From assembly GCA_965205855.1 (NCBI GenBank), contig OZ242184.1, positions 32,001 through 96,000 on the forward strand: a stretch of DNA of 64,000 nucleotides. Direction: 5' to 3'. This document shows positions 5,140-8,706 of this stretch, piece by piece. Every line of letters starts with the position of its first letter. Positions within the stretch are counted from its first letter, which is position 1. The DNA comes from Thermodesulfobacteriota bacterium (GTDB taxonomy: Bacteria; Desulfobacterota_D; UBA1144; Nemesobacterales; Mycalebacteriaceae). A model generated the notes under the pieces. It ran no database searches, had not been told where the DNA came from, and was given only the letters and a program-made list of their open reading frames with translations. Position numbers and translations under genes: made by a program.

Positions 5140-5775
5140 TTAAAATCTGACTTCCAATTTCGGGCCGATACTCAGTCCCCAAATATCGTCAATACTGTTG
5201 TCATTTGTCCACAGCGAATAAACAAACTGTCCGTCAATACCTATTGTTGCTCTCTCGGAAACTGAAAAACCAAATCCCAATTTTCCGACAAATGGTATGG
5301 ATGTTGTGGCACTGATTTTATCTCCGACATCGTAGAAATTTACTCCGGTTCCCACTCCAAGGTTGAACTCTACCGAACCGTTTCCGGCTTTCAGAACCAA
5401 AAGGGCTGGAAGCAGAATATGGTTTAAAGTTTCTCCGTCCACAGTAACCATTACATTAGCCCCTCCGCTTGTACCCGTGACATCAAATTTGCTTGAACTA
5501 ACTGTCCATCTTGGTTCAAATTCCAGGGCAAAACTGCTTTCTCCGAGAAAAACTCCGAGTTTGGGAGCCAGATAAAAACCGTTTTCTTTTACTTCTACAT
5601 TCGTCACGGTAACGCTACCGATTGTCAAGGAACCTTTGGAATCCAATTTTTGATAGGCATACCCCGAACTTAAACCAAAATAAGCTTTTGGCGAACCTGT
5701 CTGAGCCTTTGAAATACAAAACGGAAAACCCGTCAAAAACAATACAGAAACAGCGAGAATTAAAGATTTTCTCAT
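5140..5775 (-). CDS. Outer-membrane beta-barrel protein (small, OmpW/porin-like)
   Basis: Signal peptide, alternating amphipathic strands, C-terminal LEVRF. SD GGAGG 6 nt upstream of ATG. Confidence 0.75.
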   Translation of the reverse strand: MRKSLILAVSVLFLTGFPFCISKAQTGSPKAYFGLSSGYAYQKLDSKGSLTIGSVTVTNVEVKENGFYLAPKLGVFLGESSFALEFEPRWTVSSSKFDVTGTSGGANVMVTVDGETLNHILLPALLVLKAGNGSVEFNLGVGTGVNFYDVGDKISATTSIPFVGKLGFGFSVSERATIGIDGQFVYSLWTNDNSIDDIWGLSIGPKLEVRF

Positions 5776-5825
5776 TTGAAACCTCCGTTAATTTAGACTT
5801 GCACAGCTTTAAGGCGCCGGGCCTT

Positions 5826-5952
5826 GTCCACACCAAACGAAGGTTTGAAATGTTCCCGCCTATTCCCCAACGGAAGGGATCAAGCTCCCGCTTAGTCAGG
5901 TTTTCTATTTAGCAGGAGACCCGACAAAGGGTCTCCTTCGTTCAATGTGGAC
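5826..5952 (-). ncRNA. Structured leader RNA, copy A of a 3-copy family (unnamed)
   Basis: 18-bp closing helix (5935-5952 with 5826-5843, three G-U pairs). 27-nt core ACCCTTTGTCGGGTCTCCTGCTAAATA (5906-5932) identical to copy C. Confidence 0.8.
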
Positions 5953-5958
5953 GTTGCA

Positions 5959-5988
5959 ATTATAAGGTAAGAAAACCGGATAAGTCAA
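5959..5988 (-). promoter_or_regulatory. Sigma70 promoter for leader copy A
   Basis: TTGACT-18 nt-TATAAT. The closing helix begins 7 nt after the -10. Confidence 0.75.
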
Positions 5989-6043
5989 TTAAAAAAAAAG
6001 GTTTTTCCATTTTCATCCGGCTGACGGGCGAAGAATATCTAAG

Positions 6044-7285
6044 TTAATTCCGCATAAAACTGTAAAGATGTCCTCCGATTTCGGAGTTTTTCAGTTTGTT
6101 CAGAGAGTGCTTCTCAATCTGCCTGATGCGTTCGCGCGTCAGGTCAAACATCTTGCCGATTTCGTCAAGTGTAAATGTTCCCGAATGGTCTATGCCGAAA
6201 CGCAGTTTGATTATCTTCTCTTCCCTTTCGTTGAGATGGAGTTTCAACGCCTCGCGCAGTTTTTCCGAAAGGTCGTTTTTTGCCATAAGAGAGTCCGGAA
6301 CCAACTCCTCCTGATCCGGAACGGAATCAAGCAAAGTGGCGTTCTTGCCCTCAAGAATAGGTGTGTCAAGACTTATGGCGTCGTTTGTTGAGTTCAAAAT
6401 CCTTTTCACAACCTCAATGGTTATTCCAGATTCCTCGGATATCTGTTTCGGAGTCGGCTTTCTGTCCAGTTTTTTGGAAAGTTTGGCAACCGTTTTATAT
6501 ACGCGATTCGCCTGCTCAAGCAGATAAACCGGTACCTTAATTGTTCTGGTCTGCCCCTGAAGCGCCCTGAGTATGGCCTGATGTATCCACCATGAGGCAT
6601 ATGTTGAAAACTTGTATCCCTTTGTGTGGTCAAACCTCTCGACCGCTCTCATAAGTCCGAGATTGCCTTCCTGAATCAAGTCGGGCAGGGGAAGTCCCCT
6701 GTTTGTGTATCTCCTTGATATTGTTATCACAAGCCTCAGGTTGGCTTTGACAAATTTCTGTTTCATCCTCTGCGCCTTTTTTTTCTGGGCAATTCGCGCC
6801 AGCTTCCAGAGAACTTCTATTCTTTTGTTATATTCGGTCTTTTTCGCGGAACTTCTCGACATTTTCGTCTTTTTGACAAGCCGTTCAATTTTTGTAAAAT
6901 TTTTGTATGTTTTGTCCTTTTTTCTGTAGCTCCAGTCAGTATCTTCCGCGACCGCTTCGTATTTTTTTATCTTGGACGATATCTCAACTTCCTGCTTCGC
7001 TGTGAAAAGATCCTCCGAAGACATGTCCTTGAAATAAACATAAAGAAGGCGCATATGCTCATCTGGGCTGAAATCAGCCTTCTTTTTCTTTGTTTTTAAG
7101 GCTTCAAGAAAAACCTGGGCCGGAGGAGGTTCGGGAAAGTCATCGTCCGGAGAATTAGCGGTTCCCCCTATTTTCCCAAATTTGACTTCACTGTCCTCAT
7201 CCTCAGCAACGGACGATGCCTCAGATTCCAAGCTCCGGGAGTCATTTTTCATGTTTATCTTAAGTTTTTTTTCCTTATCTGACAT
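6044..7285 (-). CDS. RNA polymerase sigma-70 family factor (RpoD/RpoS-like)
   Basis: ANLRLV, DLIQEGNLGLMRAVERFD, KFSTYASWWI, TRERIRQIE. Confidence 0.93.
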   Translation of the reverse strand: MSDKEKKLKINMKNDSRSLESEASSVAEDEDSEVKFGKIGGTANSPDDDFPEPPPAQVFLEALKTKKKKADFSPDEHMRLLYVYFKDMSSEDLFTAKQEVEISSKIKKYEAVAEDTDWSYRKKDKTYKNFTKIERLVKKTKMSRSSAKKTEYNKRIEVLWKLARIAQKKKAQRMKQKFVKANLRLVITISRRYTNRGLPLPDLIQEGNLGLMRAVERFDHTKGYKFSTYASWWIHQAILRALQGQTRTIKVPVYLLEQANRVYKTVAKLSKKLDRKPTPKQISEESGITIEVVKRILNSTNDAISLDTPILEGKNATLLDSVPDQEELVPDSLMAKNDLSEKLREALKLHLNEREEKIIKLRFGIDHSGTFTLDEIGKMFDLTRERIRQIEKHSLNKLKNSEIGGHLYSFMRN

Positions 7286-8196: not shown

Positions 8197-8295
8197 GGCA
8201 CTTACTCACAGATACCCGCTTGTCGGGTCTCTGATAAATAGAAAACTCTGCTTACAGAGGAATAATCAGGCTTCTCAATCTGTTGGGTAAGTGCC
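8197..8295 (+). ncRNA. Structured leader RNA, copy B
   Basis: GGCACTTACTCA-CAGAT pairs with ATCTG-T-TGGGTAAGTGCC. Core ACCCGCTTGTCGGGTCTCTGATAAATA. Inner hairpin CTCTG-CTTA-CAGAG. Confidence 0.8.
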
Positions 8296-8337
8296 AAGAC
8301 CCGGCGCTTTGCGCCCAACCATGAGGAGGTGGTAATT

Positions 8338-8706
8338 ATGGTCAAAAATGTAAAAGAAGTGGGGACGAAGATTGTAATTTGTTTGCTAATTGTTTGTGTG
8401 GTAACAAGTTGCGGCAGGATAGCATCACCTGTCAGTTCTACAATACTGGGAGATAAGGTGCTACCCTGCGAGACTATCAGTTTAGAGATAGCCGATAATA
8501 ACAAAGCTATCAGTGAATTAAGGGGTGAGGTAAAAGGTAGAAGGGCGAAGAATATCATTCTCGGCATTACTGGCTTTTTCTTGATTGTTCCGCTTTTCTT
8601 TATGGACTTTGGAAGCGCGGCGGAGACGGAAATCATTGCTTTCCAAAAACGCAATAGCGCGTTGAAGCGTCTTGCGGGTTCAAGGGACTGCGAAGCAACT
8701 TATTGA
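8338..8706 (+). CDS. Hypothetical lipoprotein with one internal hydrophobic segment
   Basis: SD GAGGAGG at 8323-8329, ATG 8338, lipobox VTSC. Confidence 0.7.
   Translation: MVKNVKEVGTKIVICLLIVCVVTSCGRIASPVSSTILGDKVLPCETISLEIADNNKAISELRGEVKGRRAKNIILGITGFFLIVPLFFMDFGSAAETEIIAFQKRNSALKRLAGSRDCEATY

Follow-up and report, generated by a model that had tools for sequence, protein, structure and literature searches.

Background

Translational riboswitches of the OFF type, such as the thiM thiamine pyrophosphate (TPP) riboswitch and the SAM-II and preQ1-II classes, hide the Shine-Dalgarno (SD) sequence by pairing within the 5'-leader RNA, and riboswitches for second messengers, namely those of the cyclic di-GMP (c-di-GMP) I and II and cyclic GMP-AMP (cGAMP) types, control regulons in which many copies per genome precede genes for surface or exported proteins. 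Here we analyze a putative leader RNA, denoted copy A, that lies on the minus strand at positions 5952-5773 of a 64,000-nucleotide (nt) stretch, hereinafter the window, of contig OZ242184.1 from a Thermodesulfobacteriota bacterium (assembly GCA_965205855.1, positions 32,001 to 96,000), upstream of an open reading frame (ORF) of 211 amino acids (aa). The 3' strand of a long helix of this RNA, P1, is also complementary to the ribosome-binding site (RBS) of the downstream gene. Unlike the thiM TPP, SAM-II and preQ1-II riboswitches, in which the ligand-bound fold hides the SD, copy A has the P1 3' strand as the partner of its SD, and the structured fold frees the SD. With 1-12 copies per genome before genes for exported proteins, the family to which copy A belongs resembles the second messenger regulons, a likeness that we take as a lead, but unlike the c-di-GMP-type riboswitches it matches neither GEMM-I nor GEMM-II, nor any other Rfam family, in sequence or structure.

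In the add adenine riboswitch of Vibrio vulnificus (PMC5847336), P1 and a competing helix are mutually exclusive and the RBS is exposed when the ligand is bound; copy A would share this translational ON logic, in that P1 and the RBS-blocking helix exclude each other. The logic of the expression platform is all that is shared: membership of copy A in the purine (add-type) class was considered and rejected given that no Rfam match was found. The sensing domain is unrelated (no purine or other Rfam match), the family of copy A possesses a conserved 3' tail complementary to an internal box, which has no counterpart in add, and secondary structure modelling tilts the ligand-free balance of copy A already to the ON fold. 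Furthermore, P1 (18 base pairs, bp) and the blocking helix (24 bp) of copy A are both much longer than those of add.

A helix across the ribosome-binding site that excludes P1

The preliminary description of this DNA had reported that the 17-mer CATTTCAAACCTTCGTT (5852-5836) is complementary at 16 of 17 positions to the stretch 5789-5773. The pairing is indeed present and consists of 15 Watson-Crick pairs, one U-G pair and one C.C mismatch, and the target contains, as claimed, both the SD (GGAGG, 5786-5782) and the ATG (5775-5773) of the 211-aa ORF. Eight bases had also been said to be shared with P1, and 5843-5836 (CCTTCGTT) does pair with 5943-5935 in the minimum free energy (MFE) fold; because both P1 and the RBS-covering helix use the strand 5843-5826, the two cannot coexist. 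The extent of the pairing had been understated: when the 17 pairs are enforced, the helix grows to 24 pairs (5+11+3+5) that join 5852-5826 with 5798-5773. Chance is an unlikely source of the 16/17 pairing. This level was reached by one of 5000 mononucleotide shuffles of the 166 nt upstream, and in a control over the genome (1.40 Mb; 730 crudely called SD-bearing starts, with 170 nt upstream of each) by a single start, that of the copy A gene itself, with 15 pairs being reached by eight starts.

The region preceding the start codon, GUCUAAAUUAACGGAGG, closely imitates the P1 5' strand GUCCACAUUGAACGAAGG. It is this mimic that makes the two folds nearly equal in energy and allows the helix to extend beyond 17 pairs. 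The resemblance of the mimic to the P1 5' strand reaches 5 nt further upstream in copy A (TGCAA; 5953-5958 vs 5799-5803), into DNA that is expected to be untranscribed; the extension is absent from the two orthologous loci L177 and L008, and in copy A it could be due to chance or a trace of a local duplication.

When folded alone, the region 5955-5760 yields -71.2 kcal/mol (z = -4.2 against 200 shuffles). The MFE of the P1 fold is -71.2 kcal/mol compared to -67.6 kcal/mol for the RBS-blocking fold, a gap of 3.6 kcal/mol; the gap between ensemble free energies is 4.8 kcal/mol in favor of the P1 fold, and a cruder constraint gives 3.9 kcal/mol. These gaps lie within the error of the nearest-neighbour model for an RNA of 194 nt, which would make the leader close to bistable. 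In these models, the RBS-blocking alternative lies near the P1 fold in energy, and P1 is favored and is complete before the RBS has been made. The assertion that the P1 fold leaves the RBS largely free is true in a relative sense, as the SD and the AUG are outside the long helices but the SD is engaged in a weak local hairpin.

Changes on three strands in the orthologs

The product of L008 is orthologous to that of copy A (44% protein identity), and orthology of L177, where the ORF is cut after 31 codons, is indicated by the similar N-terminus and leader. The L177 leader carries several differences from copy A in its junction and spacer and yet forms a duplex of -21.1 kcal/mol with its own RBS, ranked first of 60. 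The MFE structure of L177 is itself the RBS-blocking fold, with 18 of 19 RBS positions paired with the junction or the P1 3' strand; P1 is absent from it, and enforcing P1 costs 2.5 kcal/mol. In the alternative fold of L008, 15 of 19 RBS positions are paired with the same strands. The P1 5' strand reads GAAAAGAGG in L008 and GAACGAAGG in copy A (CG -> AA), the shared 3' strand CCUCUUUUU (UU) as opposed to CCUUCGUUU, and the mimic UAAAAGGAG as opposed to UAACGGAGG (CG -> AA). The change in the shared strand of L008 is matched on both of its partners and, in a comparison of three sequences read by eye, is the most direct comparative sign of selection on both helices.

A structured RNA family conserved in several phyla

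The architecture of copy A recurs elsewhere in the window (copy B, 21577-21714, and copy C, 8197-8308, both on the plus strand) and in the rest of the genome (about 350376-350489 and 652478-652592). Covariance models were built from 5 and then 20 copies. A search of 150 related genomes with the second model (R2) produced 81 matches in 33 genomes, including all 5 other genomes of the genus and 24 of the 36 in one other genus, with none in most families. In other phyla, we detected 9, 3 and 5 copies in metagenome-assembled genomes (MAGs) recorded as Latescibacterota, Longimicrobiales and Binatia, respectively, and in the phylum of the Latescibacterota genome, matches were found in 40 of 121 sampled genomes, with up to 12 copies per genome. 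A pattern scan of genome contigs retrieved at least 118 stretches, nearly all of them chance matches; among the matches listed, the model was passed only by L025, L036, L064 and L074. Two candidates, L108 and L125, resemble the 5' half of the motif but failed the covariance model and were rejected as family members.

In the common plan of the family, a long P1 is accompanied by P2, which carries the box UGUCGGGUCU, by a P3/P4 arm whose internal loops are A-rich and conserved, by a junction rich in pyrimidines and by the conserved tail AAGGCCCGGCGCC. Across 86 aligned copies from related and other genomes, all 19 pairs of P1 and all pairs of P3 and P4 change on both sides. The fraction of paired cells is 94.9%, in an alignment fitted to the model, which favors structure, compared to 69.8% in shuffles (0/500) and 34-48% with the partners slid; the effect is large, and the values for 20 copies are similar. 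The pairing of P1 is retained between copies whose P1 sequences are entirely different, and the G-U pairs in P1 suit the sense strand only. The elements that are unpaired or barely vary, and are near-invariant, include UGUCGGGUCU (close to invariant across the 86 copies), AAUA.AA, GAAUA and the tail AAGGCCCGGCNCC. For P2, which barely varies, covariation support was not found in the 86 copies.

Three features expected of a riboswitch can be recognized in this family. The covariation across the 86 copies delineates a conserved structured domain; the location in a 5' leader is apparent in copy A, where a promoter-like site ends 7 nt before P1; and the expression platform, that is, a pairing that excludes part of the sensing fold, is represented in copy A by the stretch 5852-5826, which can pair with either 5952-5935 or 5798-5773. 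A start was called confident if a start codon accompanied by a good SD lay no more than 75 nt away, the distance at which the selection was capped. Of the 86 copies, 60 have such a start, and in these the end of the motif is separated from the start codon, which is on the same strand, by 22-59 nt.

The tail and the box pair in 92% of the cells, a value equalled in shuffles (262/500); since both barely vary, covariation cannot decide on this pairing. RNAalifold applied to MAFFT alignments reported the box-tail helix and missed P1, because MAFFT had set the non-homologous P1 strands out of register, and covariance models were used for this reason. By eye, a sequence complementary to the tail CCCGGCNCC (GCCGGG, GGAGCCGGG or GYGYCGG) regularly appears within 4-10 nt after it, as in the window (5825-5801), L008, L177, L229 and L232. 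The GC-rich hairpin that results would be in competition with the tail-box helix and is a candidate for a second switching pair.

Several copies depart from the common layout. A truncated copy at G000:C1:30602-30680, about 1.3 kb to the left of the window, retains the P1 5' strand (nearly identical to that of copy C), P2, the box and P4 and lacks the P3 3' strand, the junction, the P1 3' strand and the tail; an SD and a lipoprotein gene follow directly. In L025 and L210, from the Longimicrobiales MAG, tandem copies of the motif are located about 360 nt apart (42-198 and 562-709 of L025), with a short ORF after the first copy and a hairpin that repeats the P1 strands after the second one. The copies L012, L015 and L018 (G002) have no obvious downstream gene and are followed by a shared inverted-repeat-like element, GAGTCCCC ... 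GGGGACTC.

Pairing with the cognate ribosome-binding site

The 32 nt preceding the tail were folded against the 27 nt around each start, and the energies obtained with own and foreign RBSs were compared. For 15 loci, the mean was -14.1 kcal/mol for the own RBS vs -10.8 kcal/mol for the foreign ones (permutation p = 0.00022), and for 60 loci, the corresponding values were -12.34 and -10.70 kcal/mol, with none of 20000 permutations reaching the observed mean; the permutation figures are rough owing to kinship among the loci, with close paralogs working against the effect and shared descent of leader and RBS working for it. The distribution for the 60 loci is two-humped, with 19 of the own pairs ranking in the top tenth. 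When the P1 5' strand is excluded, the best fold of 23 of the 60 loci has the switching strand paired with 8 or more of the 19 RBS positions, and in 8 of the 60 this fold also lies within 5 kcal/mol of the P1 fold.

In the three genomes from other phyla, confident starts were available for 12 of 24 distinct loci. Here the own RBS gives -22.4 kcal/mol vs -17.7 kcal/mol (reached in 1 of 50000 permutations) and ranks first in 5 of the 12 loci; three of the 12 repeat members of the 60-locus set, such that the two sets are partly independent. Seven of the nine new loci have a gap of no more than 5 kcal/mol between the folds, with the junction or the P1 3' strand paired to 8 or more of 19 RBS positions. 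Several of the junctions start with RACAU, which is opposite the AUG in the same way as the CAU of copy A. In the loci of these three genomes the design is the rule, and only a subset of the loci shows it in the phylum of copy A. The mimic, the changes in the orthologs and the family-wide pairing with the own RBS suggest a designed arrangement rather than an accident; together, they lend computational support to the translational expression platform logic that had been proposed for this leader.

Two further observations pertain to the other copies in the window. In copy B, the P1 3' strand CAUCUGUUGA is perfectly complementary to UCAACAGAUG, which contains the ATG. In copy C, the switching strand takes up 13-14 of 19 RBS positions in the alternative fold, which is, however, 12.5 kcal/mol less stable than the P1 fold.

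A tentative model and its alternatives

We propose that 5952-5773 (minus strand), a member of a widespread structured RNA family, is the 5' leader of an mRNA for an exported protein, and that in copy A the junction together with the whole P1 3' strand can pair either with the P1 5' strand or with the downstream mimic. The former pairing would give the structured fold, with the SD and the AUG outside any long helix, and the latter a 24-bp helix that runs through the SD to the AUG and would bury the RBS. Whatever stabilizes the structured fold would turn translation ON, and the stabilizer would most likely be a small ligand bound at the conserved junction, considering that a three-way junction with invariant unpaired bases is kept across phyla. 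Copy A is probably a functional RBS-blocking switch of the ON type; that it is a true ligand-sensing riboswitch appears plausible, at somewhat less than an even chance. We infer that the switch operates in the cell, that this is its direction and that a ligand drives it. Given that P1 is predicted to form first and to be slightly favored, the switch may instead depend on co-transcriptional timing, a helper or processing. A broader proposal, which we put forward tentatively, is that the family is a new riboswitch class present in at least four, mostly metagenome-known, phyla, in which a single cue, for instance a second messenger or a metabolite related to the envelope, would turn on the translation of a set of exported proteins (lipoproteins, outer-membrane barrels, and pilin-like and adhesin-like proteins) through a long strand swap between P1 and the RBS-covering helix, with the tail and UGUCGGGUCU forming a second switching pair.

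Several results weigh against a working switch. The P1 fold of copy A is predicted to be stabler by 3.6-4.8 kcal/mol, folding of the growing chain completes P1 at 128 nt while the RBS is still unmade, and the barrier on a direct refolding path is about 22-26 kcal/mol, so on secondary structure alone the ON fold would be adopted even by the ligand-free leader. In that fold, exposure of the SD is incomplete, as it pairs with codons 2-5 in a weak hairpin (unpaired probability of 0.02-0.3 for GGAGGUUUC). Of the 60 loci, 37 have alternative folds in which the switching strand pairs with fewer than 8 RBS positions; the folds differ by a median of 11.4 kcal/mol, the cognate RBS has a median rank of 26.5 of 60, and the residual z, with row and column effects removed, is below -2 in only 10 loci (about 2 expected), copy A (z -3.3) and L177 (z -4.0) being among these ten specific loci. 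In many members, the inner P1 5' strand is itself SD-like (GGAG), so a degree of complementarity between the P1 3' strand and any SD is to be expected. The tail pseudoknot lacks covariation support, which leaves the architecture of the sensing fold incomplete, and the downstream genes (for lipoproteins, β-barrels, a pilin-like protein and a DNA methylase) point to no ligand.

The stability and early formation of P1, the height of the barrier, the absence of an RBS-pairing fold in 37 of the 60 members and the GGAG-like inner strand would all fit a leader that is constitutively open, that is, a real structured RNA in which P1 always forms and the complementarity to the RBS has no regulatory role. 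The likeness of the mimic would then come from the SD-like inner P1 strand or from an old local duplication, which the TGCAA likeness beyond the helix in copy A fits. We nevertheless regard this explanation as unlikely: a 24-bp helix that passes the SD to reach the AUG, and whose 17-mer core has a pairing level seen at no other of the 730 starts, far exceeds SD-likeness, it is kept in the orthologs through changes on three strands while the TGCAA extension is absent from L177 and L008, cognate pairing beats non-cognate pairing in two partly independent sets of loci, and the same design is embodied in different sequences in unrelated phyla.

If a switch is accepted, it might be driven by a macromolecule or a physical cue rather than by a small ligand, for example, by sequestration of the P1 5' strand or the conserved boxes through a protein or a small RNA, by RNase III cleavage of one of the long helices, or by temperature. 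Proteins could bind at the conserved single-stranded boxes, both P1 (18 bp) and the alternative helix (24 bp) would have the length required of a double-strand RNase substrate, and the high barrier suggests that a helper or co-transcriptional timing is required. Against this stand the three-way junction and the invariant unpaired bases shared by at least four phyla, which have the look of ligand-binding RNAs, and the observation that no common neighbouring protein gene was seen beside the copies, in neighbourhoods that were not studied systematically. A temperature cue would be in line with the decrease of the gap between the folds from 5.4 kcal/mol at 15 °C to 2.1 kcal/mol at 55 °C, but the effect is small and no Rfam thermometer family was matched. 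Assignment of copy A to the RNA thermometers (ROSE, fourU and others) was rejected on these two grounds and because the SD is not paired with the switching strand in the default fold. We consider drivers of this kind to be rather improbable.

The suggestion that we are dealing with an independent small RNA, or with a repeat at the DNA level, whose position upstream of genes is incidental draws on the presence of several copies per genome, up to 12, each preceded by a promoter-like site, and on G219:C1, where at least four copies (L226, L227, L228 and more) score equally, the three that were fetched are identical in sequence, and none of these three has an ORF of at least 40 aa starting within 160 nt downstream. 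The identical G219:C1 copies may belong to a repeated or mobile element. For the family at large, such an explanation is very improbable: in copy A, no terminator-like site is seen between the motif and the start codon, in the 60 loci with confident starts the motif is on the strand of the gene and ends at the distance given above, the pairing kept despite different P1 sequences and the G-U pairs that fit one strand speak for RNA structure as opposed to a DNA repeat, and the switching strand co-varies with the RBS.

Layout of the locus

The leader of copy A occupies the intergenic space between a sigma-70 family gene (6044-7285) and the 211-aa ORF on the minus strand (Table 1). From the spacing of the promoter, we infer that transcription starts about 7 nt past it, at or next to G5952, the first base of P1, so that P1 would begin at the expected transcription start. 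No terminator-like site was seen between the copy A RNA and the ATG. P3 encloses the conserved AAAUAGAAAA, variable P4 hairpins and GGAAUA; the single-sequence MFE structure instead joins 5917-5911 to another AGCGGGA at 5892-5886. In the alternative fold, the CAU of the junction is opposite the AUG and its UUUCAAA is opposite the spacer between the SD and the AUG. The predicted folds also allow the tail to form a small hairpin with 5807-5801.

Table 1. Elements of the copy A leader and the downstream gene (window coordinates)
Element	Positions	Strand	Basis or remark
Sigma-70-like promoter (TTGACT, 18-nt spacer, TATAAT)	5959..5988	-	11/12 matches
P1 5' strand GUCCACAUUGAACGAAGG	5935..5952	-	18-bp P1 in MFE fold; covariation in family
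P2 hairpin (GACCC / GGGUC), overlapping near-invariant box UGUCGGGUCU (5926-5917)	5918..5933	-	MFE fold; family alignment
P3, UCCUGCU (5917-5911) with GGCGGGA (5860-5854)	5854..5917	-	Family alignment and pair counts
Junction J3/1 ACAUUUCAAA	5844..5853	-	Unpaired in P1 fold
P1 3' strand CCUUCGUUUGGUGUGGAC, partner-switching strand	5826..5843	-	Folds
Anti-RBS/anti-AUG 17-mer CATTTCAAACCTTCGTT, core of the 27-nt stretch 5852-5826	5836..5852	-	Pairing count; enforced fold
Conserved tail AAGGCCCGGCGCC, directly 3' of P1	5813..5825	-	Complementary to UGUCGGGUCU over 10 positions
Mimic of P1 5' strand GUCUAAAUUAACGGAGG, ending in SD GGAGG (5786-5782)	5782..5798	-	Comparison by eye
RBS/start stretch AACGGAGGUUUCAAAUG / AACGGAGGTTTCAAATG, ATG at 5775-5773	5773..5789	-	Sequence; ORF
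Putative regulated gene, 211-aa ORF	5140..5775	-	ORF list

Genes downstream of the motif

The 211-aa product of the copy A gene contains an N-terminal signal-like sequence and ends in ...LEVRF. No Pfam match was obtained for it at E<=0.01, and the L008 product shows a sub-threshold match to OMP_b-brl (E 0.014). The earlier designation of the gene as one for an outer-membrane protein is plausible through this homolog; tentatively, the product is probably an outer-membrane β-barrel. Among the 60 products with confident starts, almost all begin with a signal-like hydrophobic stretch, and 27 contain a crude lipobox pattern. Pfam analysis of leader-linked products yielded OMP_b-brl above threshold in two, RTX repeats in one, and weak or no matches in the other seven. 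The exported products of the family include lipoproteins, β-barrels, a pilin-like protein, a collagen-like repeat protein and an RTX-repeat lipoprotein. In L064 and L212, from the Latescibacterota MAG, the motif precedes an ORF of collagen-like G-x-x repeats (GEKGEQGEEG...), and copy C precedes a lipoprotein-like gene of 122 aa (8338-8706, plus strand).

A DNA methylase gene follows the motif in L014 and L142; in both loci, a second GUCGGGC box, located 9 nt before the methylase AUG, can pair with the tail. Copy B precedes a broken N6_N4 DNA methylase gene (21740-22200), with a stop after about 33 codons and the Pfam match in a later frame.

Comparison with described RNAs and implications

A search of the whole window against Rfam 15 at gathering thresholds returned three tRNAs only, and the region 5700-6100 gave no matches at E<=10. 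Six loci from other phyla, namely L108, L125 and the four that contain the motif (L025, L036, L064 and L074), gave only tmRNA and tRNA at E<=1. A description of the family was not found in the literature on riboswitch candidates, lipoproteins and the relevant taxa; supplementary motif lists, which were outside this search, may hold it. The conserved 10-mers used as literature strings retrieved only unrelated primer matches, and in a 2026 preprint and two Weinberg surveys, the terms lipoprotein, outer membrane, signal peptide and secreted have no occurrences. The mechanism is of a known kind, and the RNA family appears to be undescribed.

The near-equal energies of the two folds and the co-variation of three strands yield direct mutational predictions. 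If the proposed model is correct, copy A would provide a clear worked example of the expression platform of an uncatalogued structured RNA family, and the family would be an orphan riboswitch candidate ready for ligand hunting. Given that nearly all copies precede genes for exported proteins of unknown function, the family would also offer a handle on the regulation of the cell surface in little-studied bacteria.

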